DNA of 64,000 nt from Planctomicrobium piriforme (GTDB taxonomy: Bacteria; Planctomycetota; Planctomycetia; Pirellulales; UBA1268). The notes under the pieces are model-generated. The model made no database searches. It was not told the origin of the DNA and saw only the letters and a list, made by a program, of their open reading frames with translations. Position 1 is the stretch's first letter; every line of letters begins with the position of its first letter. A program made the position numbers and the translations under genes. Of the stretch, positions 634-55,178 are shown in pieces. The stretch covers positions 450-64,449 of the forward strand of contig CAMAVC010000004.1 in NCBI GenBank assembly GCA_945861585.1, written 5' to 3'.

Positions 634-1161
634 GCCGGCTCGGGGTTACCCCGTACCGTCTCGCCGTCTGGAAGCCCGAGGCGTGAGCCGAAGGGAATAC
701 GCCTCGTGTTTCGCCACCGGGGCATCCTCTCGGCTTGCGCCTCGGGCTTTCGTTGAGGGAGGCTTCGGGCTCCTCGTGTCCCGGGAGCCAGCGTATTTGA
801 CCAGCGCAGCCATCTTCACGCGAACATCCGGCATCGTGCCGCTGTTCGCTTGGCGGGCCTCCGCCCGCTGGTGCTCACCCGGGCCTCTGGCCCTGACGTT
901 CGCATGAGGAGCCAAGCTTTGCTCAGCGACCGTAAGCCGGCGCCGACGCCGGGACGGCGGCGACGGCGCGACACTCGCCAGGCGCAGCGCAGGCAAATCC
1001 GAGCGAGTGAAGCCCAGGATGGGCGCAGCGAGCGTCCGGCGACGGGATATGAGGAGCCCGAAGCCGGCGCAAACCCGAACGGAGCGAACGTCAAGCGAGA
1101 GGGTACGGGCAGTCACGAGCCGGATTGAGCGCTTTCAGGCCGTGACAGGCTGAAGCCTGTC
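634..1161. repeat. Repeat cluster R1: Y-terminus + H hairpin + interrupted X unit + partial Y end + T hairpin
   Basis: Shares CCGGCTCGGGGTTACCCCGTACCGTCTCGCCG, the GGAAGCCCGAGGCGTGAGCCGAAGGGAATACG...CCTCTCGGCTTGCGCCTCGGGCTTTC hairpin and GGGGAGCCCGAAGCC-type termini with eight other loci. Fills the convergent gap between the VOC gene and cysC. Confidence 0.9.
1144..1161. repeat. T-hairpin module GACAGGC-TGAA-GCCTGTC, directly abutting the cysC stop
   Basis: Perfect 7-bp stem with a 4-nt loop. The next 3 nt (1162-1164, CTA on the + strand) are the TAG stop of cysC. Confidence 0.9.
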
Positions 1162-1839
1162 CTACACTGGCGGGATCTTGCCGGCGCGCTCGAGCCAGGC
1201 GATGACGTCGGCGGCGAGATCGTCGGGCGGGCGGGCTGAGGAGTCGACGACGAGCTCCGGCGTGAGCGGCTCCTCGTACGGGTCGTCGATGCCGGTGAAG
1301 CCCTTGATCTCGCCGGCGCGGGCCTTCTTGTAGAGGCCCTTCGGGTCGCGGCCCTCGCATACTTCCAGTGGCGCCTTTACGTAGACCTCTACGAAATCAC
1401 CAGGGGGCAGCATCGCCCGGACGGCGTCGCGGTCGCGGCGGTAGGGGCTGATGAAGGCCGTGAGCGTGATCGTGCCGGCCTGGGCGAAGAGCTCCGCCAC
1501 CGCGCCGATGCGGCGGATGTTTTCCTCTCGGTCTTGCGGGCCGAAGCCGAGGCCGAATCGCCGGGCGAACTCCGCGCCGTGCCGTGGCTCCAAGAGCGCC
1601 GGCGCCGCATTCAGTCCCAGCCGCACGTTGTCGCCGTCGAGCACGAAGGTGCGGCAGCCACGCTCGAAGAGCTTCCGATCGACGGCGTTGGCGAGCGTGC
1701 TCTTGCCGCAGCCGGAGAGCCCCGTGAACCACAGCACGCAGCCTTTGTGGCCTGCGGCCCGCTCGCGGTCGGCGCGGCTCACGGCGTGGGCATGCCAGCG
1801 GACGTCGACTGTCTCGGCGGGCGTACTGCCAGATGCCAT
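1162..1839 (-). CDS. cysC: Adenylyl-sulfate (APS) kinase
   Basis: P-loop context CVLWFTGLSGCGKSTLANAV and FVLDGDNVR. Internal ATG at 1839 chosen (MASGSTPAE...), 4 nt after the upstream gene's stop. The longer ORF to 1995 overlaps that upstream gene. Confidence 0.9.
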   Translation of the reverse strand: MASGSTPAETVDVRWHAHAVSRADRERAAGHKGCVLWFTGLSGCGKSTLANAVDRKLFERGCRTFVLDGDNVRLGLNAAPALLEPRHGAEFARRFGLGFGPQDREENIRRIGAVAELFAQAGTITLTAFISPYRRDRDAVRAMLPPGDFVEVYVKAPLEVCEGRDPKGLYKKARAGEIKGFTGIDDPYEEPLTPELVVDSSARPPDDLAADVIAWLERAGKIPPV

Positions 1840-1843
1840 CGTG

Positions 1844-2818
1844 TCACTCCCAGCCGTCGAGGGTGACGGCGCTCTTGAATCGGCGGGCCTGCTCGCCCGG
1901 TACGTTGCGCTCGACTTCGAGCTCGATCGTGTCGCCCGGACCGTGCCGGCCGACCTGTTCGGTGAGTGACTCGAAATTCCCCACCGGACGACCATCGATC
2001 GCCACGACCACGTCGCCGATCTGGAGGCCAGCTTTTCCTGCAGCCGAGCCGTCTTGTACGTGCGTGATCACACACGGGCCCACCATCGGCTGACCGGCGA
2101 CGCCGAGCTTGCCCCCCTTGCGCACGTCGATCCGGGCGGCGGGCAGCTTCGCCGCCAGCGCGGCGAGCTGATCGTCGGCGATTCCCGTGCCGAACAGCTG
2201 CACCGACTCGACGCCTCGGAGGCGGCCCAGGGCGGCCACGGCGGCAGCGTCGAGTGGCACACCGAACGCCCCGACCAGACGCACCCCCTGCAGCCTCGAG
2301 AGGAGCCGCAGATCCTCCGACGTGCCACGCCAGCGGGCGTTGAGCGTCACGTGCAAGCCCCGGTGTCCGCTCGCCAAAAAACCCTCCGTGATCACGGCAC
2401 CGAGCGACTCGAGCTTTTCTCGGGCCGCCTCGGTCATCCCACGATGGTGGAAGTCGAGAGCGCCGGTGACGAGCCCCGACACGGCCGAATCGGGCCCCTC
2501 GGCGATCGCTTCGAGCAGCTTCTCGGCGTCGCCCGCGAGCGCCTCGTCGTCACTGGCGAGAAACCCCCGCACGATGTCGAGCGCACGGGTCGCCACCTCG
2601 AGGTCGTCGCGGAGGACCGCGGCCCCGAGGGACGTGAGGGCCGGCCGGCCGGCAGCGGCCAGGCTGCGGCTGGCGGCTTCCCGCTGGGCGAACTGTTCGG
2701 CGCCCAGCTGGTCGATCCATGCGACGACCTGAGGCTCTGTGGCGAGCTCGCCTGCCACGGCGAACACCGGCGCGACGACGAGCGACAGGGTGATCGGGAA
2801 GCGGAAACAGTCGTGCAT
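1844..2818 (-). CDS. PDZ-domain protein with a leucine-rich-repeat-like central region and an N-terminal signal/anchor
   Basis: C-terminal PDZ-like GSAAGKAGLQIGDVVVAIDGRPV. Hydrophobic N-terminus MHDCFRFPITLSLVVAPVFAVAG. Start at the ATG at 2818 inferred. Confidence 0.65.
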   Translation of the reverse strand: MHDCFRFPITLSLVVAPVFAVAGELATEPQVVAWIDQLGAEQFAQREAASRSLAAAGRPALTSLGAAVLRDDLEVATRALDIVRGFLASDDEALAGDAEKLLEAIAEGPDSAVSGLVTGALDFHHRGMTEAAREKLESLGAVITEGFLASGHRGLHVTLNARWRGTSEDLRLLSRLQGVRLVGAFGVPLDAAAVAALGRLRGVESVQLFGTGIADDQLAALAAKLPAARIDVRKGGKLGVAGQPMVGPCVITHVQDGSAAGKAGLQIGDVVVAIDGRPVGNFESLTEQVGRHGPGDTIELEVERNVPGEQARRFKSAVTLDGWE

Positions 2819-2929
2819 GCAGGCGTCCGCCGGGGGGTTGTGCCGAATATACCAGCCGACCACGACGGCGTTTTCCCGCGGCTACACTAGGTCGTATCCT
2901 TCGCCCCGTCGCCCTGCCAGCCCGCGGCC

Positions 2930-4921: not shown

Positions 4922-4937
4922 TGCCACCCGTATGTGT

Positions 4938-5092
4938 GCGCGCCGGCTCGGGGTAACCCCGATCCTCCCCGTCTGGAAGCCCGAGGCGTGAGCCGAAGGG
5001 AATACGCGGAGTGTTTCGCCACCGGGGCATCCTCTCGGCTTACGCCTCGGGCTTTCGTTGAGGAGGATCGGGGTTGTCCAGAGCCGGCGCGC
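4938..5092. repeat. Repeat cluster R2: H hairpin nested between an inverted pair of Y-type termini
   Basis: GCGCGCCGGCTCGGGGTAACCCCGATCC [H unit] GGATCGGGGTTGTCCAGAGCCGGCGCGC. Confidence 0.9.
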
Positions 5093-5169: not shown

Positions 5170-5520
5170 ATGCCATTCGTTCGTTCCGCCCTCATCGCGA
5201 CCCTCGCCATCTGCGGCCTCGTCTGGTCGGCCCACGTGGACGCCGCCGGACCGCGCAATCCCTACTCGAGCTTCAACCTCTCGGGCATCAACTACGGCGC
5301 CCAGCAGTGGGAGCGGGCCCAGCGGCAGGGGAAGGTGGTGTGGCCCTACTACAACGTGCCGTCGCGAAGCTCTTCGCGTGGCTCGTCACGGAACTCAGGC
5401 GTGTACGTCGGTGGTGTGGTCGCCGGCGGGAGCGGGGCCGGCACGATCGTTCAAGCGGGCTCCTCCCGTCCGACGCAGCGGTCGTATACGACCCGCACCT
5501 CGCGCCGTTGGCGGCGGTGA
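5170..5520 (+). CDS. Small secreted hypothetical protein (Ser/Gly/Arg-rich C-terminus)
   Basis: Internal ATG gives the signal peptide MPFVRSALIATLAICGLVWSAHVDAAG. GC-rich third codon positions. No recognisable family. Confidence 0.45.
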   Translation: MPFVRSALIATLAICGLVWSAHVDAAGPRNPYSSFNLSGINYGAQQWERAQRQGKVVWPYYNVPSRSSSRGSSRNSGVYVGGVVAGGSGAGTIVQAGSSRPTQRSYTTRTSRRWRR

Positions 5521-5526
5521 GCGCGG

Positions 5527-9433: not shown

Positions 9434-9654
9434 GGGGAGGTTATAGCAAGGCGAGGTGCTGCCCACATTTCATCGCAAGAAGGCCGGACAGGTGACAAAA
9501 GCCCGTATTCGGAGCCGGCGGTAGGCATGCTCGACTCCGGTCGTGTTGAGAGTACAGGACTCGTGGGTTTTGCTCAGGCGCCCATAGTCCTCAACGACTC
9601 CCTTCGTCTGCGCGTGCCCACCGACCGACTCCGCCGAAAGTTCTCGGCGTCTAG

Positions 9655-9810
9655 GAGTCGGGGAGGCGAGGGGCTGCCCCTACCGTTGAGCCGGCGTATG
9701 TGACCAGCGGAGCCAAGGATGGCGGAGCGCAGGCACATCCGAGTGAGTGAAGCCCAGGATGGGCGCAGCGAACGTCCGGCGAGACGGTACGGGGCTGCCC
9801 CGAGCCGGCG
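9655..9810. repeat. Repeat cluster R3: single Y unit (CTG/CAG-loop subtype)
   Basis: GGAGGCGAGGGGCTGCCCCTACCGTTGAGCCGGCG ... CGGCGAGACGGTACGGGGCTGCCCCGAGCCGG. Ends about 8 nt from the purH stop. Confidence 0.9.
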
Positions 9811-9817
9811 CGTGAAG

Positions 9818-20643: not shown

Positions 20644-22251
20644 ATGCGGCGGTGTGCAGGGCCTTGGATCGGGGTGGTCCTCCTCGCAGCCTGCTGCCAC
20701 GCCGAGGAACCGGCGTCGGCGTTTCGCGTCAGGCCCTACCTGCAGAATCCAGCCTCCGACGCGATGACCGTCCGCTGGCTGACCAACGACGACAGGCCGG
20801 GGACGCTGCGCGTCGCGGGCCGGGAGTTCACGTCTGCACCGGTCCTGTGCCTCGAGCTCGCCTACCAGCCGAACGAAGCCCGCGACGATCGGCTCGGCAG
20901 TGCCCCCTTCCTGCACTCCGTGCGCGTGACCGGACTCGAGCCCGCGATGAGCTATCCCTATGCCGTTGAGCAGGGTGATGAAACCAGGAAGGCGATCCTC
21001 ACCACGGCACCCAAACCCGGCGACGTGGGGCCGGGCGGCGGTGTGCGGCTGTTCTTCTATGCCGACTGCGAAGCACAGCCCGAATCGCGCGGCTCGCGCG
21101 TGGCATGGCCGCCGTCGCCGTCACTCCCGGGAGGGCCGCGGCCTGGCTGGGTGGAGGGCCGCTATCCCGCCGACGAGACGACGGGTTACCGGATGAACCT
21201 CGCGCTCATCGCCGCCCGGGCCGCCGAGAGCCTGCGGGCCAAAAACCCCGTGCTCGTGAGCGTCGTGGGCGATCTCGTGGAGAGCGGCGGCGAGCAGCGC
21301 GACTGGGACGAGTTTTGGCGACACAATGCCGGCGACTTCGGCACGCTCGCCTCACGGGTGCCGATCGTGGCGGCCTTGGGGAATCACGAACTCTTCGGCG
21401 GGCCGCCTTCCGACGACCCGAAGAAGGACCTCGGCGGCTACTCCGGCCGGGCGACGCTCGTGGGCGCGATGAAGTTTCTCACCTACTTCGACCATCCCAC
21501 GAACGGGGCCGCCGATGAGCGGCACGAGGAACGGTATCACCGAGTCGACTTCGGCCCCGTCACCCTGCTCACGCTCGACACGACCAACGGCGGCGGCGAC
21601 GACGGGCCGGATGATACGAACCACGATCTCGACCGCGCCGACGCATCCCACGTCCCCGACTACGCCCCGGGGTCGGAGCAGTATGCGTGGCTCGAGCGCC
21701 AGTTGTCTGACGCGCGCGCCGCGGGCCGGATCATCCTCGTGCAGTTTCACCATGCGCCCTACTCGTCCGGCCCACACGGACTCCCCCCCGGAGACGGCCT
21801 CGGGGAGAATCTCCAGTCGGGCCAGCCGTTGCGGGTCTTCGCGGATCTCTTCCGCACGCACGGTGTCCGCGCCGTGTTCTCCGGGCACGACGAGATGTAC
21901 GAACACTCGATCGTGGACGGGATCCACTACTACGACGTCGGCATCGGGGGCGATGCCCTGCGGGGCCCCGAGGCTGCCGCGACCAACGGGCGGCAGGTCT
22001 TCCTGGCGCACGATCACGCGCCCGAGCGATGGAACGGCGACGTGCTCGAATCCGGTGGCAAGCACTATGGCCACGTGGAGGTCGATGTGGAGCGAAACGC
22101 GGCGGGGCCCGGGTTCACCGTTTCGATCCGGCCTGTCCACCTGTTTCCCGTGCTCGATCCCGCCAAGCCGGGTACGATCGCGACTTGGGAACGTCGCGAA
22201 TACGACGACGTGGTGACATTCGACGCTGCCATCAAGGAGCCCTCACGATGA
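20644..22251 (+). CDS. Metallophosphoesterase (purple-acid-phosphatase-like), secreted
   Basis: N-terminal FRVRPYLQNPASDAMTVRW, GDLVESG, GNHE and FHHAPYSSGPHG motifs. Starts 1 nt after the upstream stop. Confidence 0.8.
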   Translation: MRRCAGPWIGVVLLAACCHAEEPASAFRVRPYLQNPASDAMTVRWLTNDDRPGTLRVAGREFTSAPVLCLELAYQPNEARDDRLGSAPFLHSVRVTGLEPAMSYPYAVEQGDETRKAILTTAPKPGDVGPGGGVRLFFYADCEAQPESRGSRVAWPPSPSLPGGPRPGWVEGRYPADETTGYRMNLALIAARAAESLRAKNPVLVSVVGDLVESGGEQRDWDEFWRHNAGDFGTLASRVPIVAALGNHELFGGPPSDDPKKDLGGYSGRATLVGAMKFLTYFDHPTNGAADERHEERYHRVDFGPVTLLTLDTTNGGGDDGPDDTNHDLDRADASHVPDYAPGSEQYAWLERQLSDARAAGRIILVQFHHAPYSSGPHGLPPGDGLGENLQSGQPLRVFADLFRTHGVRAVFSGHDEMYEHSIVDGIHYYDVGIGGDALRGPEAAATNGRQVFLAHDHAPERWNGDVLESGGKHYGHVEVDVERNAAGPGFTVSIRPVHLFPVLDPAKPGTIATWERREYDDVVTFDAAIKEPSR

Positions 22252-23906
22252 ATCTGACCACTCTCGTCCTCGCGCTTGTCGTGTCTGCCTGGGCTACGTG
22301 CCTGACCGCCGCAGAGCCGACGCCACCGCGCCAGATGGTGCTGGGTGCGAAACGGATCGTGATTCTCGGCGACTCGATCACATACGGCGGCGGCTGGGTG
22401 GTGCCGTTCATCGCCTGGCTCGAATCCGAAGGGTGGACCGGAGACGTCATCAACATGGGCCTCTCAAGCGAGACGGTGTCGGGGCTCTCCGAGGAGGGCC
22501 ACGCCGGTGGGAAGTTTCCCCGGCCCGATCTCCACGAGCGGCTCGACCGCGTGCTGCGCGTCGGACGGCCCGACCTCGTGATCGCCTGCTACGGGATGAA
22601 CTGCGGCATCTACCAGCCGCTCGACGAGGCGAGGTTTACGAAGTTCAAGAATGGGATGCAGCGGTTGCACGACGCGGTCGAGAAGACCGGCGCGAAGATC
22701 ATCCATCTCACGCCGCCCGTCTACGACCAGCGGCCCGACAAGGACGGGCCGGCCGGGAAGGTCGATTACGACGCCGTGCTCGACGCCTACTCGAAGTGGC
22801 TGCTCTCGAAGCGGGCCGACGGCTGGATCGTGGTCGACACCCACGGGCCGATGAAAGCGGCGCTCGCGGCAGCCCGTGCGAAAGACCCAGCCACGATATT
22901 CGCCCCCGACGCGGTCCACCCCAACGAGGCAGGCCACTGGGCCTTCGCTCGGGGACTGTTCTCGGGCCTCGGCGCACACGCCGTCGCCGCGAAGGAGACG
23001 CCGGAGCACTTCGCCGCCTTCGTACCCGACGTGAAGCGGCGCATGGAGGTTCTCCGCGACGCCTACCTCGCGGCCGCCGGCCATCAGCGGCCCGGCGTCG
23101 CGACTGGCCTGCCGCTCGGCGAGGCCGAGGCCAAGACCCGCGATCTCACCGAATCGATCCGCTCGCGGCGTTACCACCTGATGGGTGGCCAGACGGGCCA
23201 GGGTGTCGAATGGCGGAGTCCCGTCGAGTGGCCGCAGCCGCGGGTCGTCGATCCGGGCCCGGCCCCGCAGTCCGCCGCCCCCGTGCCGTCCGACGCGATC
23301 GTGCTCTTCGGCGGCAAGGATCTTTCCGCCTGGAGCAACGGTGAGAACTGGCGGGTGGCCGATGGCGTCGCGACGGTCGGCAAGGGAGACGTCCGCACGA
23401 AGCAGGGCTTCGGCGACTGCCAGCTCCACGTGGAATTCCGCACCGCCGCCGACACGCAGGGCAAGGGGCAGCAGCGCAGCAACTCCGGCGTGTTCTTCCA
23501 AGACAAGTACGAGATCCAGATCCTCGATTCCTTCCAGGACGGCACCGACCAGCCCGTGACCTACTTCGACGGCCAGTGCGGCGCCCTCTACAAGCAGCAG
23601 CCCCCCGCCGTGAACGCCTGCCGCAAGCCGGGCGAATGGCAGACCTACGACATCCTGTTCACCCGGCCGCGGTTCAAGGCCGACGGGTCGCTCGCGAAGC
23701 CCGGCCGGATCAGCGTGCTCCACAACGGTGTGGCGATCCACTCCGATACGGTGATCAAGGGCGACACGTTCTTCCACGCCCCGCCGAGCTACACGGCGCA
23801 TCCCGACGCCCTGCCGATCCGCCTCCAGGACCACGGCAACCCGGTGCAGTTCCGCTCGATCTGGGTCCGCCCCTTCGAGCCCCTCGTGCCGACGCTCAAG
23901 GAGTAG
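22248..23906 (+). CDS. SGNH/GDSL hydrolase fused to a DUF1080 (3-keto-disaccharide-hydrolase-like) domain, secreted
   Basis: RIVILGDSITYGGG (SGNH block I). C-terminal NSGVFFQDKYEIQILDS ... GEWQTYDILF ... VLHNGVAIH (DUF1080-like). ATGA overlap with the upstream gene. Its TAG stop lies in a degenerate T module. Confidence 0.8.
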   Translation: MNLTTLVLALVVSAWATCLTAAEPTPPRQMVLGAKRIVILGDSITYGGGWVVPFIAWLESEGWTGDVINMGLSSETVSGLSEEGHAGGKFPRPDLHERLDRVLRVGRPDLVIACYGMNCGIYQPLDEARFTKFKNGMQRLHDAVEKTGAKIIHLTPPVYDQRPDKDGPAGKVDYDAVLDAYSKWLLSKRADGWIVVDTHGPMKAALAAARAKDPATIFAPDAVHPNEAGHWAFARGLFSGLGAHAVAAKETPEHFAAFVPDVKRRMEVLRDAYLAAAGHQRPGVATGLPLGEAEAKTRDLTESIRSRRYHLMGGQTGQGVEWRSPVEWPQPRVVDPGPAPQSAAPVPSDAIVLFGGKDLSAWSNGENWRVADGVATVGKGDVRTKQGFGDCQLHVEFRTAADTQGKGQQRSNSGVFFQDKYEIQILDSFQDGTDQPVTYFDGQCGALYKQQPPAVNACRKPGEWQTYDILFTRPRFKADGSLAKPGRISVLHNGVAIHSDTVIKGDTFFHAPPSYTAHPDALPIRLQDHGNPVQFRSIWVRPFEPLVPTLKE

Positions 23907-24216
23907 GACAAGCTTCAGTCTGCCCGACCTCGTCAGGTACGCGCCGGCTCGGGGTAACCCCTCGCCTTCCCAACCGGAAGCCCGAGGCGTGAGCCGAAGG
24001 GAATACGTGTGGCGGATCACAACCGGGGGCATCCTCTCGGCTTGCGCCTCGGGCTTCCTTGTGGAACAGGGAGGCCTCCACTCACTCGGATGTGCCTGCG
24101 CTGCCTGGAGCGCATTCGCTGCGCCATCCATGGCTTCGCTGGTCACATACGCCGTCTCAACGGCAGGGGTAACCCCGAGCCTCTCCAACTGGAAGCCCGA
24201 GGCGTAAGCCGAAGGG
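23907..24216. repeat. Repeat cluster R4: degenerate T hairpin + Y terminus + H hairpin + X/Y unit + half H
   Basis: GACAAGCTTCAGTCTGCC (degenerate T), GCCGGCTCGGGGTAACCCC, a full H unit, then ...GCCTGCGCTGCCTGGAGCGCATTCGCTGCGCCATCCATGG...GGGGTAACCCCGAGCC. Confidence 0.9.
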
Positions 24217-24580
24217 ATGCCGGGCCGAACTTTCGGCAAAGACGGCTGGGGCGTCGGGGCTTCCTACTTTGACATCATGTCGGGCCAATGGAGGTCGGCA
24301 ACGTTTAACGTACCGGCGATGAGTTCCTCCGTGATGCCGACGATCGCTGCGGATGGCATTGGTGGCATTGGCGTGGCATGGATGGGTTGGCCTCGACTTC
24401 GACGCTGAGAATTATCCCGTGATCTCTTTCTTGGCAAGCACTAGCGGCGGTTGGGGATCAACGGCTGACATCTGGATCGCCTACGACCCCATCGTCGTGC
24501 CGGAGCCCTCGGCGGTCGTGCTTGCGGCCGCAGGGTTCGCAGGCATGTGCTACGCGGCACGCCGCAAACGCAGCCGGTGA
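24217..24580 (+). pseudogene. Frameshifted 3' remnant of a PEP-CTERM protein gene
   Basis: Two overlapping frames (24217-24408 and 24353-24580). The second ends in the PEP-CTERM tail VPEPSAVVLAAAGFAGMCYAARRKRSR. The apparent ATG lies inside repeat DNA. Flanked by R4 and R5. Confidence 0.45.
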
Positions 24581-24652
24581 GCCCATCCCTGTGAAGGGCA
24601 ATGGCAACGAACGCCTTGCTTCATTGGAAAGGCGATTTGCGGTTTCGGCGCC

Positions 24653-24900
24653 TACCAGTTGAGGAGGCTTCGGGCTCCCCGTGCCCCGGGAGCCGGCGTA
24701 TCTGACCAGCGAAGCCATGGATGGCGCAGCGCAGGCAGATCCGAGAGAACGGAGGGAAGGATGCCCGCAGCGAACGTCCGGCGACGGGATATGGGGAGCC
24801 CGAAGCCGGCGCGCCCAACGCCCCGACCGTCCGGCGAGACGGTACGGGGTAACCCCGAGCCGGGCTGGGCGAGTTCGGGCATGACAGGCTGAAGCCTGTC
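24653..24900. repeat. Repeat cluster R5: X unit + Y end + T hairpin
   Basis: GGCTTCGGGCTCCCC ... GGGGAGCCCGAAGCC, then CGGCGAGACGGTACGGGGTAACCCCGAGCCGG, then T. Confidence 0.9.
24883..24900. repeat. T-hairpin module abutting the stop of the 24901 gene
   Basis: GACAGGCTGAAGCCTGTC followed by CTA (24901-24903), the TAG stop on the minus strand. Confidence 0.9.
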
Positions 24901-25146
24901 CTACGTTGCGAGTGCGGCGCGGATGGCGGCGAGTTCGGTCGGTGGGTCGTTCTCGGCGCGGGCGAGTTTGCCGGCCTTCGCGAACCAGTAGCGGGCGTTC
25001 CCGCGGTCGCCCTCGATGGCGTGCAACACGGCGTGGATCCAGCAGGCTGTCGTATCGGCCTCGTCCTCTTGCACGATGCCGTGCGCTTCGTCCCAGCGGC
25101 CGGCCTCGGCGGCGTCGAGCGCCGCGAGCAGGTCGGCCTTCGTCAT
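24901..25146 (-). CDS. Small conserved helical hypothetical protein (81 aa)
   Basis: ...GRWDEAHGIVQEDE...ACWIHAVLHAIEGDRGNARYWF resembles a widespread small-protein family as I recall it. ATGA overlap with the upstream gene. Confidence 0.55.
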   Translation of the reverse strand: MTKADLLAALDAAEAGRWDEAHGIVQEDEADTTACWIHAVLHAIEGDRGNARYWFAKAGKLARAENDPPTELAAIRAALAT

Positions 25147-30775: not shown

Positions 30776-30970
30776 GCCCAATCCGGCTCGGGGCTGCCCA
30801 TGCCCTGAGAGCCGGGCTGTGGGAGCGAGCGAAGCCATGGATGGCGAAAGCGAAGCGGACACGCAGAGAGCGGATGCCACGATGGCATCCGCGAACGTCC
30901 GGCGACGGGGCTGGGCAGTCACGAGCCGGATTGGGCGCGAGGAGGCCCGACAGGCTGAACCCTTTCGTAA
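30776..30970. repeat. Repeat cluster R6: Y-type unit with GCCCAATCCGGCTCG termini + mutated T module
   Basis: GCCCAATCCGGCTCGGGGCTGCCC ... GGGCAGTCACGAGCCGGATTGGGC, then GACAGGCTGAACCCTTTCGTAA. Overlaps the last codons of moeA. Confidence 0.85.
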
Positions 30971-32211
30971 GTACGCAGCACGACGTCGACTTCCGAGCTG
31001 GGCTCATGGGTCGCGCGGCCGGCGGGGAGCGCGACGTAGCCATTGGCGCCCGCGAAGCCGCGGAGGTCGGAGGAGCCCGTCCACGGCAGCGGCGTCGCTG
31101 TGAGCGCGTCCGGCGGGCCGTCGAGCCGACACGGCAGATACACGGGCCGGTCCGCAGCGCCCTTCGCCGGGGCCGTGAGCCGCGCGCTGGCCCGCGGCAG
31201 GTGCCACGCATCGCGCGGCTGCCCGGCGAGGATCATGAGCGCGGGCCGCACGAAGAGTTCGAAACAGACGAGGCTGCTCGCCGGATTGCCCGGGAGGCCG
31301 AAGACGAGCGTCGACGCTGCGCCCTCGCGCCGCGCTACGCCGAACCACACCGGCTTGCCCGGCTTATGCCGCACTTTGTGGAAAATCTTCTCGACGCCGC
31401 ACCGTAGAAAGATGTCGGGGACGAGATCGAGATCACCGGCCGACACACCGCCCGAGAGCAGGAGCACGTCGGCGGCAAGGCCCTGAGCCACGGCTGCTCG
31501 GATCGCCTCCGGCCTGTCGACCGCGATGCCGAGCGGGATCGGCTCAGCACCGAGCAGACGCACGGCAGCGGCGAGCATCGGGCCGTTCGAGTTTCGCGTC
31601 TGGCCGAATGCGGGCACGGCGTCGGGCGGCACGAGCTCGCTGCCGGTAGAGAGAATCGCGACCCGCGGCCGACCCGCGGCCACGACATGCGTCGCCCCGG
31701 CCTCCGCGGCGAGCCCGATCTCGGCCGCGCCGAGCAGGCTGCCGGCCGGCAGCACCGCGTCTCCAGCGCGAAAGGCGACGCCCTGCCGTGCCACGTGCTG
31801 CCCCGGCCGGAATTTTTGATCGTCGAGGTTCACGCGGCTGCCGGCATGTGCGGTCGCTGCATCGTCGCAGGCACACTCCACGGGGATCACCGCATCAACG
31901 CCGGCGGGGATGGGGGCCCCGGTCATGATCCGGGCGCAGCACCCGGGCCTGATCTCAAGCGCCGTCACGTCGCCAGCGGCGAGGTCCACCACCACGTCGA
32001 GCGCAACGACTCCGCCGGAGGCCGCGGCCACGTCGGCCGATCGTACCGCAAATCCATCCATCATCGCCCGATCCCAGGGAGGCGAATCGACGTCGGCGAC
32101 GACGGGCTCCGCGAGCGCGAGGCCGCACGCGTCGAGCAGCCGCATCCGCCGTGGCGGCAACGGCCCGGCGGTCGCCTCGACCAGAGCGATCGCGTCGGCA
32201 AGTTCGATCAT
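30919..32211 (-). CDS. moeA: Molybdopterin molybdotransferase
   Basis: 430 aa with MoeA-like organisation (MIELADAIALVE..., SGGVSAGDLD). The last ~16 codons (YERVQPVGPPRAQSGS) are encoded by repeat R6. Confidence 0.9.
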   Translation of the reverse strand: MIELADAIALVEATAGPLPPRRMRLLDACGLALAEPVVADVDSPPWDRAMMDGFAVRSADVAAASGGVVALDVVVDLAAGDVTALEIRPGCCARIMTGAPIPAGVDAVIPVECACDDAATAHAGSRVNLDDQKFRPGQHVARQGVAFRAGDAVLPAGSLLGAAEIGLAAEAGATHVVAAGRPRVAILSTGSELVPPDAVPAFGQTRNSNGPMLAAAVRLLGAEPIPLGIAVDRPEAIRAAVAQGLAADVLLLSGGVSAGDLDLVPDIFLRCGVEKIFHKVRHKPGKPVWFGVARREGAASTLVFGLPGNPASSLVCFELFVRPALMILAGQPRDAWHLPRASARLTAPAKGAADRPVYLPCRLDGPPDALTATPLPWTGSSDLRGFAGANGYVALPAGRATHEPSSEVDVVLRTYERVQPVGPPRAQSGS

Positions 32212-35664: not shown

Positions 35665-36486
35665 GCGCGCCACCGCGGCCCGGGCAGATCGCGACCCGAC
35701 CACGCGCGCGCCTCCATGCGAGGGCGCACCCGGAGCCGACCGACCGCTCGAAGCCGTGCTTCTGGAAACTGCCAAACGTCCGACTGCGGCGGATCGCTCC
35801 GCAGCACCCGTGCCTGCCGCCCCGCCCTCGCGAGGAAAGCCTGCTCAGCGACTTTGGTAGGTCTTCTGACTCCCAGGCTCGGCCGGCTGCATGCCTTCTC
35901 GCGGAGGCCGCATCGCAATGCGGTTCGCAATGGCTTGGAAACAGCCGACCTTGGCGCCTGGTCACAGCGGCGGGGCCGTCCCGGAATCACACCGGTGTTC
36001 CCTGTTTGCCGGCGACGAGCAAGAGCTCACCCCGGCCACCAGAGTCGTGGCGGCAATGTATCGGGGGCCCCGCCCCTGTCAAGCAGAGCGTTCGCCGCGA
36101 GCCCGTGAGAAGTTATGCCGGTCGCGCAAAGACGCAGGCCGAAAATGTGACGTTCGTAGGGCCTTGCGCCATACAGTTTGTGCACGCGAAACAGACGGCA
36201 TTTCTTACCTGATGCGCAGCCCTAAGTCGTGCCGGGAAAAATACTTGGAGACACTCAAGCCGCTTTCGTCCGTCCGCCGATAGCCCACTCTGTCCCCCGG
36301 GGCAATCACTGTGCCCGTCGGGCAACCAGGGGGCGGCAGTTACCTGCAAATGCTTCGAGTCACGGAATGGCTCGACAGGCCTGCCGCAGAAAAGTTCGTG
36401 GATCACAAGCCTCGGGGCGCAGAAGCCTCAAGACAAAAACGGAAGTCGACTTCCGGGTGCTCCACAAGCAAAGGAGATGTGGCTCG

Positions 36487-37326
36487 ATGAAGCGTATGTT
36501 GTTCCTCGGTGCACTGGTTCTCGGTGTCACCGTTTGTAGCCAGTCTTTCGGTTTCGAGCTCCTTGATCGGATGCTCGGCCACAAGGGCTGTGCCTCGTGC
36601 TGTGAGCCCGGCTGCGATGCCGGCAATGGTTGCTGTGAGCCCGGCTGCGGTGCCGGCAACGGCTGTGCGGAGCCGGCCTGTGGTGCTGGCAATGGGTGTG
36701 CGGAACCGGCGTGCGACGCTGGTGCCGGTTGCTGCGAGCCGAGCTGCGGCGCTGCCTCTTGCTGCGGCACCCGCTGCCGGAAGAAGCACGACCTGTTCGG
36801 TGGCCTGAAGGGTCTGTTCGAAAAGTGCAAGCGGAAGCACCACGGCTGCTGCGACAGCTGCTGTGAGCCCGCCTGCGACGCTGGTAACGGCTGTGCGGAG
36901 CCCGCTTGCGGTGCTGGCAACGGTTGTGCGGAGCCCGCCTGCGGAGCCGGCAACGGCTGTGCGGAACCGGCCTGCGACGCTGGTGCTGGCTGCTGCGAGC
37001 CGAGCTGCGGTGCGGCCTCGTGCTGCGGCGTGCGGAAGAAGCACTGCCGTGGGACGCCGATTGCGGACCTTCTCCGCGCCATCCACAACGCGAAGAAGCG
37101 TTGCCACAAGGCGAGCTGCTGCGATAGCTGCTGCGGCGAGCCCGACTGCTCGGCCGGCAACGGCTGCTGCGAGCCTGGTTGCGGTGCCGGCAACGGCTGC
37201 TGCGAGCCGGCCTGCGGTGCGGTCGCCGCTCCGGTCGAGGCTGCGGCCCCGACGCCGGACGCGTCGGCTGCCAAGAAGACGACCGGCAAGGTCGTCGCGG
37301 TGAGCCGGACGGTTGCCACGAAGTAA
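36487..37326 (+). CDS. Secreted cysteine-rich tandem-repeat protein (13 C-x-EP-x-C units, about 48 Cys in 279 aa)
   Basis: AAGGAG SD and signal peptide MKRMLFLGALVLGVTVCSQSFG. 33-nt (11-aa) repeats GCAEPACGAGN in three blocks, separated by Lys/His-rich linkers. Copies differ at synonymous sites. TAA stop and strong terminator. Confidence 0.75.
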   Translation: MKRMLFLGALVLGVTVCSQSFGFELLDRMLGHKGCASCCEPGCDAGNGCCEPGCGAGNGCAEPACGAGNGCAEPACDAGAGCCEPSCGAASCCGTRCRKKHDLFGGLKGLFEKCKRKHHGCCDSCCEPACDAGNGCAEPACGAGNGCAEPACGAGNGCAEPACDAGAGCCEPSCGAASCCGVRKKHCRGTPIADLLRAIHNAKKRCHKASCCDSCCGEPDCSAGNGCCEPGCGAGNGCCEPACGAVAAPVEAAAPTPDASAAKKTTGKVVAVSRTVATK

Positions 37327-37377
37327 GTAGTCAAGCGGTCGAAACGGAAGTTTCGTTGCCCGACTTCGGCCAGTGAG

Positions 37378-37416
37378 CTCCGCCCGGGGGGAAACCCCCG
37401 GGCGGAGTCATTTTAT
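37378..37416 (+). terminator. Intrinsic terminator (13-bp GC stem, GAAA loop, TCATTTTAT tail)
   Basis: CTCCGCCCGGGGG-GAAA-CCCCCGGGCGGAG followed by a T-rich tract, about 50 nt after the Cys-rich gene's stop. Confidence 0.75.
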
Positions 37417-37492
37417 GCGCGTGCGAAACACGCACTCGCAGCGTGCAGCACGCTGCTCCATCGCCAAGGGCGATCGCCCGTTCTTCCTTCAC

Positions 37493-37804
37493 GCGCCCAA
37501 TCCGGCTCGGGATTGCCCAAACCCTCCTCAACGAAAGCCCGAGGCGCAAGCCGAGAGGATGCCCCGGTAGCGAAACACTACGCGTATTCCCTTCGGCTCA
37601 CGCCTCGGGCTTCCAGACCGGGAGGCGAGGGGCTGCCCCTACCGTTGAGACGGCGTATGTGACCAGCGAAGCCATGGATGGCGCAGCGCAGGCACATCCG
37701 AGTGAACGGAGGGCTGGAGGCCCGTAGCGAACGTCCGGCGAGACGGTACGGGGCAGCCCCGAGCCGGATTAGGCGATCCAGGACACGGCAGGCTGAAGCC
37801 TGTC
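37493..37804. repeat. Repeat cluster R7: Y terminus + H hairpin + Y unit + T hairpin
   Basis: GCGCCCAATCCGGCTCGGGATTGCCC, H unit in inverted orientation, GGAGGCGAGGGGCTGCCCCTACCGTTGAG...GGTACGGGGCAGCCCCGAGCCGGATTAGGC, then T. Confidence 0.9.
37787..37804. repeat. T-hairpin module (GGCAGGC variant) abutting the ABC ATPase stop
   Basis: GGCAGGCTGAAGCCTGTC followed by CTA (37805-37807), the TAG stop on the minus strand. Confidence 0.85.
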
Positions 37805-38494
37805 CTACAGGCCGAGGACGGCGGCGGGTGGGCCCGTACGGGTGATGCGGCCGGCGACGAGTTCGACCACCTGCGTGGCGGCGCGGCGGGCGAAGGCGTG
37901 GTCGTGCGTCACCACCACCATGGTCTGCCCGCCGCGGGCGAGCGACACGATCGTCTCCATGACCTCGGCCGACATCGCCGGGTCGAGGGCGCTCGTCGGC
38001 TCGTCGAAGAGCATCACCCGGGGCCCGAGGGCCAGCGCGCGGGCGATCGCCACCCGCTGCTGCTGGCCGCCCGAGAGCGTGGCGGGGCGGGCGGCGGCGA
38101 ATGCCGCCATGCCCACCCGGGCGAGCTGAGCCTCGGCCATGCCGTGGGCCTCGGCCCGCGGCAGCCGGGAGACGACCCGCGGCCCAAGGGCCACGTTCTC
38201 GAGCACCGAGAGATGCGGAAACAGGTTGAACTGCTGAAACACCATGCCGACGTCGCGTCGCACTCGTTCGAGCACTCGCGCGGGGGGCGGGCCCGGCTGC
38301 ATGCGGTGCTCGCCGATCGTCACTGCACCGGCGTCGAAGGCCTCGAGGCCGTTCAAGCAGCGCAGGAGCGTGCTCTTGCCGCCCCCCGATGGACCGACGA
38401 TCGCCGTCACCTCGCGCTCGCCGGCTCGCAGGCTGACGTCGGCGAGCACGCGCGTGCCGCCGCGGGCCTTCGATAATCCTACGATGTCGATCAT
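37805..38494 (-). CDS. Polar amino-acid ABC transporter ATP-binding protein
   Basis: Walker A GPSGGGKST, signature LSGGQQQRVAIARAL, Walker B MLFDEPTSALD. Confidence 0.9.
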   Translation of the reverse strand: MIDIVGLSKARGGTRVLADVSLRAGEREVTAIVGPSGGGKSTLLRCLNGLEAFDAGAVTIGEHRMQPGPPPARVLERVRRDVGMVFQQFNLFPHLSVLENVALGPRVVSRLPRAEAHGMAEAQLARVGMAAFAAARPATLSGGQQQRVAIARALALGPRVMLFDEPTSALDPAMSAEVMETIVSLARGGQTMVVVTHDHAFARRAATQVVELVAGRITRTGPPAAVLGL

Positions 38495-47904: not shown

Positions 47905-47930
47905 CCGGCTGCATAGGGCTCGACTCAGAC

Positions 47931-48307
47931 GCGCCGGCTTCGGGCTCCCCATATCCCGTCGCCGGACGTTCGCCTTCGCCCTCCAGGCTACGGCTCACTC
48001 GGATTTGCCTGCGCTGCGCCATCCATGGCTCCGCTGGTCAAATACGCCGGCGAGCGGGACACGGGGAGCCCGAAGCCTCCTCCACTGGAACGGGGAGGCG
48101 AGGGGTTACCCCTGCCGTTGAGACGGCGTATGTGACCAGCGCAGGCAGGAAGCCGGAGCGCAGGCACATCCGAGCGAGCGGAGGCCAGGATGGCCGCAGT
48201 GAGCGTCCGGCGAGACGGTACGGGGTAACCCCGAGCCGGATTGGGCGCGTTGAGACATGACAGGCTGAAGCCTGTCCTACAACGGAACATGGGGAGCCCG
48301 AAGCCGG
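47931..48307. repeat. Repeat cluster R8: X unit + Y unit + T hairpin + orphan X terminus
   Basis: X at 47936-48077, Y at about 48098-48248, T at 48259-48276, and GGGGAGCCCGAAGCCGG at 48291-48307. Confidence 0.9.
48259..48276. repeat. T-hairpin module (not abutting a real stop codon)
   Basis: GACAGGCTGAAGCCTGTC. The nearest real stop (48324) is about 45 nt away. Confidence 0.9.
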
Positions 48308-48323
48308 CCCCCACTCCAACGCC

Positions 48324-52362: not shown

Positions 52363-53103
52363 GGCGATAGCTTCCCGGACCTCGGTGGGCCAGCTCCGTG
52401 GCAGTGCCGCTTCGATCGTGATCGCCGCGCCCGTGTCGGGATCGGTATAGCGGATCTGCCACGCATGCAGGGCGATCGCCTGCTGCCGCGGGTCGACGGT
52501 CGGAGCGAATGCCGGCAGCGATGACTCTCCCGAGCCGTACTGTGAGTCGCCGACGAGGTGCAGGCCGCGGCTGGCAGCCTGCACCCGCAGCTGATGCATG
52601 CGCCCGCTGAGCGGCTCGAGCCTCAGGAGCAGCATCCCCGGCAGCGGGTGAGCGAGCGTTCGCACGAGCGTGACGGCCTCGCGGGCCCCGGGCTCGGCCG
52701 CTCCGGCTATCCGAGCCCGCGGTTCGTGCGGCACCTTCACGAGCATGTCTCGCCACTCCGTTTCGTGCGCATCGAGCGCATCCGTGCCGGCGTGTTCGAC
52801 GATCGCAAGATATGCCTTCGAGATCTCCCGGCGCTCGAACTGCCGGGAGAGCTTGCGGGCGGCCCGCGGGGTGACGGCCAAAAGCAGCACGCCTGAGACG
52901 GCCCGATCGAGCCGATGCGGCACTCCGAGATACGCCCCGGCATCGAGCCGGGCCCGCAGCCACGCCTCCGCGCTCGGCATGCCAGGGGGGGCCTGCGTGG
53001 CCAGGCCCGCGGGCTTGGCCACGGCCACCACCCCTCCGCGCTCGGCGAGCAGGGTCGGCAAGAAATCCGTGTCTGTTTCCTGGGGATCAAATCCCTCTTT
53101 CAT
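52357..53103 (-). CDS. RluA-family pseudouridine synthase
   Basis: Catalytic HRLDRAVSGVLLLA. Convergent 6-nt overlap with the glycosyltransferase gene. Confidence 0.85.
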   Translation of the reverse strand: MKEGFDPQETDTDFLPTLLAERGGVVAVAKPAGLATQAPPGMPSAEAWLRARLDAGAYLGVPHRLDRAVSGVLLLAVTPRAARKLSRQFERREISKAYLAIVEHAGTDALDAHETEWRDMLVKVPHEPRARIAGAAEPGAREAVTLVRTLAHPLPGMLLLRLEPLSGRMHQLRVQAASRGLHLVGDSQYGSGESSLPAFAPTVDPRQQAIALHAWQIRYTDPDTGAAITIEAALPRSWPTEVREAIAS

Positions 53104-53141
53104 ATGCCCCCCCAGTCGGATAAGTTTTCGGCGCACAACGA

Positions 53142-53786
53142 ATGAGGTCCATCATGCCAACGAAACTGCTCATCGTCGACGACCACGAAATGGTTCGTCG
53201 CGGCATCGCGGAGATGGTCGGCACCGCCGACGTCCAGGTCGTGGCCGAGGCAGCCGACGGCGACGCCGGCGTCAGCGCGGCCCGGCGGCACAAGCCCGAC
53301 GTGGTCCTGCTCGACGTGCGCATGAATGGCCAGGACGGCATCGATGCCATCAAGCGCATCCGCTCGGCCGCGCCCCACGCCCGCGTGGTCATGCTCTCGG
53401 CATTCGACAACTCCACCTACGTGGCCCGTGCCGTGTCCGCCGGTGCCCATGACTACGTCCTCAAGACGGCCTCCCGCAAGGAACTGCTCGAGGCGATCGG
53501 CGGAGCGGCCAAAAACGCCGCACCTTCCCGGTCAGGTGAATTCCGCCGGGTCGCCGGCGCGATGGCCAAGCGCGAGGTGTCGACCGCGACCGACGTGCCG
53601 CTCACGCCCCGCGAAACGCAGGTGCTCCGCCAGGTGGCGCTCGGCCTGTCGAATCGAGAGATCGCCGACGCGCTCGAGATCAGCATCGAAACGGTGAAGG
53701 AGCACGTGCAAAACCTGCTCCGCAAGACCGCCCTCGACGACCGCACCCAGGCCGCCGTGTGGGCCATCCGCCACGGCATCGCCTGA
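53142..53786 (+). CDS. NarL/LuxR-family response regulator (no kinase gene nearby)
   Basis: KLLIVDDHEMVRRG...DVVLLDVRMNGQDG. HTH LTPRETQVLRQVALGLSNREIADAL. The start could be the ATG at 53154. Confidence 0.9.
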   Translation: MRSIMPTKLLIVDDHEMVRRGIAEMVGTADVQVVAEAADGDAGVSAARRHKPDVVLLDVRMNGQDGIDAIKRIRSAAPHARVVMLSAFDNSTYVARAVSAGAHDYVLKTASRKELLEAIGGAAKNAAPSRSGEFRRVAGAMAKREVSTATDVPLTPRETQVLRQVALGLSNREIADALEISIETVKEHVQNLLRKTALDDRTQAAVWAIRHGIA

Positions 53787-53805
53787 GCCCGGTCATTCCT
53801 CCAGC

Positions 53806-54165
53806 TCAGGACTCGAGCCGCTTGAGCGCCGCGACCGCGGCAAGCGCCCGATCGGCCGTGCCGAAGTGGCTCACGAGCCGCTTGGCGGCGATCAAGTCCT
53901 CGACGGAGATCGGGCCGCCTCGCCCGCCGACAGGCCGCTGCACCTTCCCGGCGCCCGCCTCGGCGGCACGCCGCTTCCGCGGCCGGAAGCCCATCCGCTT
54001 GAGCACCATGCTCACCTGCGGCGACGACACCTCGACACCCTGCTTCTTGAGCTGAGCGATGATCACGATCGGCCGCGGCTTCTCACCCTTCTCCTTCATT
54101 GCAGCAGCGATGCGGCGGATCTCGGCGGACTTGTTCACATCTTTTGCGGGCTTCTTCTCGACCAT
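53806..54165 (-). CDS. Small basic hypothetical protein, possibly nucleic-acid binding
   Basis: 119 aa, Lys/Arg-rich, with RPRKRR and GGRGGP tracts between two helical segments. Confidence 0.45.
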   Translation of the reverse strand: MVEKKPAKDVNKSAEIRRIAAAMKEKGEKPRPIVIIAQLKKQGVEVSSPQVSMVLKRMGFRPRKRRAAEAGAGKVQRPVGGRGGPISVEDLIAAKRLVSHFGTADRALAAVAALKRLES

Positions 54166-54288
54166 GGGAAATCGCGCTCCTCGGCGTCGGGTGACTGTTA
54201 TCTCAGTGTTACTAACACCCGGATTACACTACACTCACACCCGGGTCGCAACCCCCTCCCGCGCTTCTTTCCCACCCCCCGGCGCTCC

Positions 54289-54738
54289 ATGCCCACGTTT
54301 GATTATTCCTTCACCGTGCCGGCGCCGCTCGCAGCCGTCCAGAAATTTCACAGCGACACGAGCGCCTTGAAGCGGCTCACGCCCCCGCCCACGATCGTGC
54401 ACTTGCACTCGATCGAGCCTCTCGCAGAGGGCTCCGTGTCGAAGTTCACGCTCTGGGTGGGCCCGCTGCCGCTGCACTGGACGGCGGTGCATCGCAACGT
54501 CTCGCCCCACGGCTTCACCGACGTGCAGGCCTCGGGCCCGGCCGCCCGCTGGGAGCACACGCACACCTTCACGCCGCTCGACTCGTCGACGACCCGCATC
54601 GACGAACACATCGAATTCGAGCACAAGCCGGGCTTCTGGGGCGTGGTGACGCGCCTGCTCTTCTCGCGGCCCAACCTGACCCTGATGTTCTTCTACCGCA
54701 AGCTCGCCACGCAGTATTACCTGCGAAAGCAGGCATAG
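54289..54738 (+). CDS. SRPBCC (START/cyclase-dehydrase-like) ligand-binding domain protein
   Basis: MPTFDYSFTVPAPLAAVQKFHSD... with GPLPLHWTAVH and WEHTHTF strings typical of this fold. Confidence 0.7.
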   Translation: MPTFDYSFTVPAPLAAVQKFHSDTSALKRLTPPPTIVHLHSIEPLAEGSVSKFTLWVGPLPLHWTAVHRNVSPHGFTDVQASGPAARWEHTHTFTPLDSSTTRIDEHIEFEHKPGFWGVVTRLLFSRPNLTLMFFYRKLATQYYLRKQA

Positions 54739-54772
54739 GGCGATCGCGGTGATGTCGCCAGATAGTCAGGGC

Positions 54773-55178
54773 ACCGGCTTCGGGCTCCCCATATCCCGTC
54801 GCCGGACGTTCGCCTTCGCCCTCCAGGCTTCGGCTCACTCGGATTGGCCTGCGCTGCCTGGAGCGCATTCGCTGCGCCATCCATGGCTCCGCTGGTCAAA
54901 TACGCCGGCGAGCGGGACAGGGGGAGCCCGAAGCCTCCTCAACGAAAGCCCGAGGCGTAAGCCGAGAGGATGCCCCGGTGACGAAACACGACGCGTATTC
55001 CCTTCGGCTCACGCCTCGGGCTTCCAGACGGGGAGGCTCGGGGTTACCCCTACCGTTGAGCCGGCGTAGCTGACCAGCGCAGCCAGGATGGCGCAGCGCA
55101 GGCAGGTCCGAGCGAACGGAGCCCATGGATGGGCGCAGTGAGCGTCCGGCGAGACGGTACGGGGTAACCCCGAGCCGG
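54773..55178. repeat. Repeat cluster R9: X unit + H hairpin + Y unit
   Basis: X at 54776-54935, H at about 54936-55033, and Y at about 55034-55178 bounded by GGCTCGGGGTTACCCC / GGGGTAACCCCGAGCC. Confidence 0.9.

Follow-up and report, generated by a model that had tools for sequence, protein, structure and literature searches.

Mosaics of hairpin repeats built on a covarying three-way junction in an uncultured planctomycete lineage: a candidate family of the REP/REPIN/BIME kind

The 64,000-nucleotide stretch of DNA analysed here (the window; contig CAMAVC010000004.1 of assembly GCA_945861585.1, Planctomicrobium piriforme, positions 450 to 64,449, with a G+C content of about 68%) carries, in the gaps between its genes, mosaics of short hairpin-forming modules that an earlier note on the same DNA had named X, Y, H and T. 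Analysis of these modules revealed that X and Y are one element of about 150 nt that differs only in its arm sequences and that folds, on one strand, into a covarying three-way junction. At roughly even odds (a probability of about 0.5), the mosaics are non-coding repeats of the kind formed by repetitive extragenic palindromes (REPs), REP doublets forming hairpins (REPINs) and bacterial interspersed mosaic elements (BIMEs), residing in the core chromosome of a Pirellulales-like planctomycete from freshwater and copied, exchanged or moved as folded single-stranded DNA (ssDNA) by an enzyme encoded elsewhere. The repeat pattern itself is far beyond chance, which is excluded because full copies in the window score 144-165 bits against a covariance model on one strand whereas their complementary strand reaches 10-29 bits, and because the core pattern of the element occurs in more than 220 stretches of DNA.

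The X/Y element and its strand-specific fold

The element was characterized in a structure-independent MAFFT alignment of 71 copies, six from the window and 65 from public metagenome-assembled genomes (MAGs). In this alignment the interior is identical in kind and orientation across X and Y and only the terminal arms differ, with the two arms of any copy always matching each other; X and Y are two among several arm types with mutual compensation. The interior of X had previously been read as that of Y in the opposite orientation, which is not the case: the orientation relative to the copy's own arms is the same, and the X copies at 47931 and 54773 that seemed to be reversed are simply inverted copies. 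The copy at 30778-30936 is not decayed but represents a third subfamily (W) that is conserved in another genome (L050).

The consensus fold from RNAalifold consists of a long terminal stem of about 30 bp with small internal loops, formed by the two arms, and of the hairpins P2 and P3, so that the "spacer" between the arms is a conserved three-way junction of about 90 nt. Within P2, an outer stem surrounds an inner hairpin of the form GCC-(A)UGGAU-GGC or GGC-...-GCC. Double-sided changes were found in 23 of the 43 predicted pairs, standard pairing was retained in 97.6% of cells (86.6% for column shuffles and 32-41% for slid partners), and the covariation score was 0.332 vs. 0.133. Many unpaired positions are invariant as well, including CGGCGUA, UGACCAGCG, GAG.GA and GA.CGUCCGGCGA, an invariance that is partly forced by the pattern used for selection. 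The arms of Y form a GGGG-TWA-CCCC hairpin with an inner GGTAG/GGTAC, the tag facing inward.

The fold is specific to one strand, here called the sense strand. This strand was the more stable in 69 of 71 copies (-83.3 vs. -73.7 kcal/mol as RNA), and the consensus fold scored -58.8 for the sense strand vs. -40.7 for the other; for a single copy, folding gave -83.3 kcal/mol (z -6.5) when treated as RNA and -43.6 (z -5.2) when treated as DNA. Our own tally over the predicted pairs gave about 159 G-U cells vs. about 19 A-C cells, an asymmetry that must be real because transitions in a palindrome should yield both equally.

Module grammar, placement and turnover across genomes

Read on the other strand, module T is GTAG-GACAGGC-TTCA-GCCTGTC, with a 7-bp stem, a 4-nt loop and no U-tract. 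GTAG-type REPs have been defined by a stem of 5-13 bp, a loop of 2-20 nt and an unpaired GTAG at one end (Di Nocera et al. 2013, PMC3733652). As a short stem-loop ending in GTAG and present in many extragenic copies, T fits this published definition and, judged by its sequence, is a new member of the GTAG-tagged REP superfamily. In about 1.5 Mb of related DNA the CTAC tail was found in 72 of 95 T copies; in 25 of the 95 its CTA serves as stop codon for the gene on the opposite strand, and a further 23 lie within 30 nt of one, so that 48 of 95 copies lie no more than 30 nt from a gene 3' end. Tandem T arrays occur in L130, L208, L010 and L061.

The remaining modules are arranged around X/Y with similar regularity. 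Apart from locus 2, H is flanked by the 5' ends of two X/Y units facing each other. Other GTAG-tagged hairpins lie upstream of many X/Y units, where a REPIN-like doublet, GTAGC-GACAGGCC-TCCA-GGCCTGTC-GATC-GACAGAGC-TGGA-GCTCTGTC-GCTAC, was also detected. A frequent composite runs from X/Y through a GG(A/G)TTGGGCG linker to T and then a stop codon, T following on the same strand in about 40% of X/Y copies by our own count. Solo arms are 3' arms in 34 of 42 cases, usually directly after a full copy and often of the other arm type. Two additional families are associated with the element. Family Q lies directly upstream of Y copies, ends in the GTAG-type hairpin CGCCGA-AAGTTC-TCGGCG-CTA and is found in L071, L073, L101, L032, L080 and others. 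Family I (about 168 nt, without an open reading frame, ORF) is nested in the P2 loop at the same point, between AGCCAT and CTTCACGCG, in three different hosts, namely an X copy in the window (813-980), an X-like copy in L056 (1167-1335) and a Y copy in L040 (about 1-40), which suggests, on sequence grounds, site-specific targeting of the P2 hairpin. Despite their differing interiors, X, Y, the H element of locus 2 and a further element, K, share similar termini, GGCT(T)CGGG... / ...CCCG(A)AGCC, on elements of 90-160 nt without a consistent reading frame.

Placement was determined with a purpose-written codon-bias gene caller for 222 full copies in the related DNA. None of the 222 lies within a gene. 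Among the 143 copies with both neighbours known, the gaps are convergent in 70 cases, tandem in 71 and divergent in 2, whereas background gaps in the same DNA number 171 convergent, 651 tandem and 167 divergent; convergent gaps thus account for 49% of copies vs. 17% of gaps, and divergent gaps for 1.4% vs. 17%. The non-random position relative to gene ends that had been suspected from the window is therefore borne out. Of the copies in tandem gaps, 43 have their sense strand antisense to the genes and 28 have it sense, and the nearest gene most often lies on the element's 3' side with its own 3' end toward the element (123 of 220). Adjacent units are head-to-head in 38 cases, tail-to-tail in 2 and tandem in 6, which resembles the head-to-head dimers of REPs and REPINs, and the tails of units face gene 3' ends, often via the linker and T. 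These features amount to a BIME-like grammar of fixed modules in regular orientations, with H between heads and linker plus T at tails.

Related DNA was retrieved with a 22-nt core pattern, GCGTANNTGACCAGCGNAGNCA, which matched at least 101 stretches in a species-representative genome collection and at least 120 further stretches in a metagenome scan. Nearly all of the matches listed come from MAGs assigned to Planctomycetia, Pirellulales or Planctomycetaceae, and the MAG names, as we read them, hint at lake samples (Lake Mendota, the Experimental Lakes Area, Lac Pavin). Counting only matches confirmed by the covariance model, at least 20 species-level MAGs carry the family on many contigs; it is therefore dispersed and not confined to this region. 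The core-pattern matches in L015 and L070 (Pirellulales) and L089 (Acidobacteriaceae) were rejected as chance, as was carriage by phages or plasmids, for which viral contigs gave a single chance match lacking a covariance-model match. The closest genome among those listed is GLSM_20803 (about 93% identical over 8 kb), and L050 shares synteny with the window, its identity being 78-86%.

Nearest neighbours lie in another genome for 61 of the 71 aligned copies, without grouping by genome, and identity averages 81.5% for copies of one genome and 79.4% for copies of different genomes. The lack of clustering by genome fits a long-lived, vertically carried population, as has been described for REPINs (bioRxiv 10.1101/2021.07.10.451892).

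Two side observations concern the MAGs themselves. Six loci carrying the family bear the labels Candidatus Kuenenia (L030, L050, L076, L095) or Chitinophagaceae (L036, L042); given the synteny of L050 with the window and the planctomycete repeats at all six, these bin labels are, by sequence, probably wrong. Additionally, many copies sit exactly at contig ends (e.g., L017, L019, L023, L026, L027, L029, L039, L058, L059, L067), making the repeats a likely cause of fragmented MAG assemblies in this group.

Comparison of orthologous sites revealed both persistence and turnover. L050 lacks locus 2 in the orthologous gap. At the gap of locus 3, L071 retains a Y copy with a compensatory P3 change from GCCC/GGGC to GGCC/GGCC, and the unit in L050 is inverted; in a gap common to five species the element is always there and its arm type varies. 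Identity is bimodal over 73 flank-defined orthologous pairs, with some pairs 94-98% identical (e.g., 96-98% vs. flanks of 89-94%) and many at 66-82% vs. flanks of 86-93%, X-for-Y swaps included. The comparison of orthologous copies with their flanks consequently gave a mixed, bimodal outcome with respect to purifying selection at single loci. Fifteen apparently vertical pairs contained 20 compensated pairs, 14 one-sided pair-keeping changes, 18 pair-breaking changes and 60 unpaired substitutions. Synteny with GLSM_20803 (L065) breaks inside the H module of locus 9 (window 54999, L065 1297), with L065 carrying clpX upstream at the break point instead; the repeats therefore mark a rearrangement point. 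Combined, the intergenic and convergent-enriched placement, the orientation rules, the GTAG REP, the nested insertions, the presence or absence at one locus and the swaps agree with the REP-, BIME- or MITE-type behaviour that the earlier note had ascribed to the family (MITE stands for miniature inverted-repeat transposable element).

Loci and features of the window

All nine intervals listed in the earlier note, numbered here as loci 1 to 9 along the window, were confirmed to carry the described modules by repeat finding, blastn with those modules, a covariance-model scan and direct reading. A depth map against the 1.5 Mb of related DNA gave about 3.0 kb of repeat DNA, or 4.7% of the window, compared with the roughly 4% given in the earlier note; it includes a tenth locus at 56268-56358 and the families Q and I, none of which that note had listed. 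The repeat intervals of the depth map are 631-1168, 4950-5079, 9489-9815, 23951-24226, 24646-24910, 30784-30972, 37428-37488, 37515-37814, 47918-48308, 54768-55209 and 56271-56359. The covariance model, built from the 71 copies, matched ten X/Y copies, on the plus strand at 9658, 24659, 30778, 37617, 48090, 55028 and a split copy at 754-1070, and on the minus strand at 24012, 47927 and 54767.

The genes of the window are those of an ordinary chromosome (APS kinase, trpC, purH, moeA, smpB, ppk, fabI, dnaJ and others, by Pfam). None of the nine loci lies in a divergent gap, as had been noted, and the count of six convergent gaps is corrected: loci 2 and 3 are in tandem gaps, that of locus 2 because a small conserved ORF (5170-5520) comes after it, and the others are convergent. 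The individual features are as follows.

635-666, minus: solo 3' arm of Y type, locus 1 (arm hidden Markov model, HMM, match; sequence)
671-752, plus: H hairpin of 82 nt (blastn; RNA fold -57.5 kcal/mol, z -7.1)
754-1070, plus: X copy split in its P2 loop, 5' part 758-812 and 3' part 981-1070 (blastn, covariance model)
813-980, plus: nested I element in the P2 loop of that X copy (comparison with L056 and L040)
1084-1123, plus: solo 3' arm after the X copy, locus 1 (arm HMM)
1144-1165, plus: T, a GTAG-tagged REP (GACAGGC-TGAA-GCCTGTC + CTAC); CTA 1162-1164 is the stop of the minus-strand APS-kinase gene
4943-5087, plus: locus 2, H (4976-5057) within Y-type inverted arms, a single 145-nt hairpin (fold -111 kcal/mol, z -10.9)
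9467-9657, plus: Q repeat of about 190 nt, ending in a CGCCGA-AAGTTC-TCGGCG hairpin and a CTA(C/G) tail (repeat comparison)
9658-9815, plus: full-length Y copy, 160.3 bits (covariance model)
23907-23924, minus: degenerate T-like hairpin straight after the stop codon of gene 22248-23906 (reading of sequence)
23977-24056, plus: H hairpin, locus 4 (blastn)
24072-24188, minus: truncated Y copy, model positions 3-99 (covariance model)
24192-24221, plus: partial H, its first 26-30 nt (blastn)
24659-24816, plus: full-length X copy, 144.1 bits (covariance model)
24828-24863, plus: solo Y-type 3' arm immediately 3' of the X copy (arm HMM)
24883-24904, plus: T REP with CTAC; CTA 24901-24903 is the stop of the minus-strand ORF 24901-25146 (gene calls, T survey)
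30778-30936, plus: W, third subfamily of the three-way-junction element, 77.8 bits (covariance model)
30948-30970, plus: degenerate T-like hairpin (repeat families D4 and D12; sequence)
37428-37488, strand not assigned: Q-like family fragment (repeat comparison)
37532-37613, minus: H hairpin between a solo arm (37498-37525) and a Y copy (blastn, sequence)
37617-37774, plus: Y copy with the window's highest score, 165.1 bits (covariance model, folds)
37787-37808, plus: T REP with CTAC; CTA 37805-37807 is the stop of the minus-strand ABC-ATPase gene (sequence, gene annotation)
47927-48084, minus: X copy, head-to-head with the following Y (covariance model)
48090-48246, plus: Y copy (covariance model)
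48259-48308, plus: T REP with CTAC (48259-48280), then a solo X-type 3' arm (blastn, T survey)
54767-54942, minus: X copy with an expansion of about 18 nt (covariance model)
54943-55024, minus: H hairpin between two heads, locus 9 (blastn)
55028-55185, plus: Y copy adjoining tRNA-Lys(CTT) (covariance model)
56268-56358, plus: tenth locus, the K element of about 90 nt, with inverted ends GGCTCGGGGG... / ...CCCCCTCGCC (depth map, fold)

The K element lies between fabI and a NUDIX gene and has related copies in other MAGs (e.g., in the flank of L046). At locus 6, the minus-strand moeA ORF extends into the repeat (30919-30970) and stops within it. The 436 nt separating loci 4 and 5 (24217-24652) contain stops in the single frame that was translated, are not covered by a gene call and match none of the related loci retrieved. 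A cobalamin riboswitch (35839-36058, minus strand, 81.7 bits) was detected upstream of a minus-strand operon that begins with DUF1559 and DUF4465 proteins. On the plus strand, the ORF 36229-37326 (365 aa) is made of 33-nt tandem repeats encoding a Cys-rich CCEPGCGAGNG-like motif and has no Pfam match; it is followed by a strong canonical terminator (37377-37408). Since this terminator precedes the repeats of locus 7, those repeats are not required for ending that gene.

Mode of spread and relation to known systems

No Pfam transposase domain reached the curated cut-off in the approximately 60 called genes of the window, for which Pfam gave housekeeping functions only, in agreement with the earlier note's finding of no transposase there. 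Beside this result, the 119-aa ORF 53806-54165 (minus strand), about 600 nt from locus 9, has a sub-threshold match to HTH_33 (22.7 bits vs. a cut-off of 25), which we take to be a domain of IS630-type transposases; this ORF may be a transposase remnant. The RAYT (REP-associated tyrosine transposase) search used E. coli TnpA-REP, validated against PDB 4ER8, as its tblastn query, and its two weak matches were rejected as a LysR regulator and as a membrane protein judged TatC-like by eye. Clustering of 1261 ORFs returned no recurrent transposase-like family; judged from the sequences of representatives, the recurrent non-syntenic families consist of common paralogs, namely ABC ATPase, glycosyltransferase, DUF1559, sigma-54 activator, SDR, kinase and ECF sigma factor.

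Known families were sought with similar outcomes. Rfam returned nothing on the repeats at the gathering score, at E<=1 (window) or at E<=10 (locus 7), its matches at gathering score in the window being the cobalamin riboswitch and tRNA only. The module sequences, which also lack protein-family matches, were not found in the literature searched, in line with the earlier note, which knew of no described family with them. Protein coding was rejected because ORFs across the loci have no Pfam match and indels between copies break any frame, as the reported lack of a consistent frame had implied. Integron attC sites were likewise rejected: the termini do not fit what we take to be the R''/R' core consensus (RYYYAAC...GTTRRRY), and the neighbours are housekeeping genes in mixed orientation.

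Placement, mosaic grammar, GTAG REPs, head-to-head dimers, nested and solo pieces, turnover and an old shared population together argue for the REP/REPIN/BIME kind, and we infer mobility by a structure-specific enzyme. The X/Y units would be copied, exchanged or moved as folded ssDNA by such an enzyme encoded elsewhere, which would belong to the HUH/Y1 type acting on REPs and REPINs (RAYT/TIRYT). HUH enzymes (IS200/IS605, RAYT) work on one folded DNA strand, and the strand-specific fold fits such handling. Copies would then survive only at harmless sites downstream of genes, and the hairpins may incidentally serve as barriers at mRNA 3' ends. The related Rhodopirellula baltica is reported to have many tyrosine-transposase genes with flanking repeats (PMC3733652).

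Several results weigh against this reading. No Y1/HUH transposase was found in the window or in the roughly 1.5 Mb around more than 220 copies (Pfam on window genes, HUH/NP motif regular expressions, tblastn, ORF clustering), although a RAYT flanked by X/Y copies might have turned up in the DNA searched. A three-way junction of 150 nt in which many unpaired bases are invariant is far more elaborate than described REPs and REPINs, and the X-type arms carry no GTAG-like tag. A within-genome identity of only about 81% gives no sign of a recent burst, and an indel scan of all loci for clean pairs of filled and empty sites gave one unrelated case only; no cleanly bounded excision or insertion was directly recovered.

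The main rival, unlikely on balance, is that X/Y is a structured non-coding RNA family, either of small RNA genes directed toward a neighbour's 3' end and ended by T or of cis-acting RNA elements, with repeat-like spread being secondary. Strong covariation, present in the interior hairpins and not only in the arms, and the many invariant unpaired positions point in this direction, as do the G-U/A-C asymmetry and stability difference that indicate one functional strand, the core kept in at least 20 species-level MAGs, the presence of T behind about 40% of copies, on their own strand, and some orthologous copies that are better conserved than their flanks. However, no conserved upstream sequence was found, the flanks being other modules or unique DNA, and orientation to transcription is inconsistent in tandem gaps (43 antisense vs. 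28 sense). Read-through from the nearest gene, which in most cases points toward the 3' end of the element, would give the antisense strand. T also lacks a U-tract, locus 7 lies beyond a canonical terminator, and the subfamily swaps, solo arms, nested insertions, head-to-head dimers and lack of an Rfam match do not favour an RNA family. A broader variant, which appears quite unlikely, would make X/Y a new class of functional structured nucleic acid, as a sense-strand RNA (guide- or bridge-like, or a regulatory antisense RNA at the neighbouring gene's 3' end) or as the ssDNA substrate of an unrecognised structure-specific recombinase, retained over a long time by the planctomycete lineage as a vertically inherited replicator without a transposase of known type.

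E. coli BIMEs have been proposed as sites that the host itself maintains, and it is improbable, though conceivable, that the repeats here are DNA structures or protein-binding sites of this sort (for a nucleoid protein, a topoisomerase or as recombination hot spots), spread by recombination or gene conversion without a transposase. The lack of a transposase in 1.5 Mb, the persistence of copies at orthologous gaps across species and sequence variants common to genomes rather than genome-specific are all consistent with such sites, and the 20 compensated differences in 15 orthologous pairs could be conversion tracts; double-stranded binding sites, however, would not produce strand-specific G-U pairing, recombination alone leaves the locus 2 insertion and the site-specific nesting of I unexplained, and no candidate binding protein is known. 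The least probable of the explanations makes the elements classical MITEs, with a DDE transposase that would recognise the GGCT(T)CGGG...CCCG(A)AGCC termini they share and move them as double-stranded DNA. Small size, terminal inverted repeats, the lack of an ORF, the sharing of termini by several types with differing interiors (X, Y, the locus 2 H element and K) and the weak HTH_33 match in 53806-54165 (minus strand) would suit MITEs. Standalone copies, however, are not flanked by the direct repeats of a target-site duplication, searches of the window and the related loci (1.5 Mb) gave neither a DDE transposase nor a parent insertion sequence (IS), a head-to-head bias (38:2) is foreign to MITEs, and a double-stranded mechanism leaves the interior covariation and strand-specific G-U pairs unexplained.

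To our knowledge, REP and REPIN repeats have been studied almost only in Proteobacteria and are barely described in this phylum. The present family places a rule-bound mosaic in a freshwater, uncultured planctomycete lineage, with a core unit far more structured than described REPINs. The X/Y element is a well-supported candidate motif for databases of RNA or ssDNA structure, and the family offers a test case for long-lived intragenomic replicators outside Proteobacteria and for their enzyme, as well as a practical account of the fragmented MAGs of this group, with copies at contig ends. If these genomes contain no HUH transposase, the mode of spread becomes an open problem.

Compared with known systems, T resembles the GTAG REPs (PMC3733652) in its 7-bp stem, 4-nt loop and GTAG end, its extragenic sites at gene 3' ends and its arrays; further GTAG hairpins and an inverted doublet lie beside X/Y, and the inward tag of the Y arm is as in head-to-head dimers. 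It differs in a sequence not found in print, in the lack of a RAYT in the window and the 1.5 Mb, and in a tag that coincides with a stop codon in 25 of 95 copies. With REPINs (Bertels and Rainey 2011, PMC3116915) the X/Y units share two inverted arms in a long hairpin, a non-coding, high-copy nature, diverse within-genome populations common to related species and persistence at orthologous sites; unlike REPINs, their "spacer" is the roughly 90-nt three-way junction with covarying hairpins and invariant loops, the units pair head-to-head into palindromes of about 330-420 nt, and again no RAYT was found in the DNA searched. The likeness to E. coli BIMEs lies in the few modules, the strict relative orientations and the sites in gaps behind genes, convergent above all, whereas the present sequences show no relation to theirs, the modules here are far larger and have more structure, and the phylum differs. 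Correia elements, ERIC/IRU and RPEs are hairpin-forming bacterial MITEs of 100-160 nt with terminal inverted repeats and no ORF, situated near gene ends. The present elements resemble these in size, inverted termini, long hairpins, gene-end sites and the lack of an ORF, and differ in having no target duplication, a strand-specific fold, a covarying interior and no known parent IS. Overall, both the three-way-junction unit X/Y and the way in which it is assembled, head-to-head with H bridges and T caps, represent an undescribed form of the REPIN/BIME kind.

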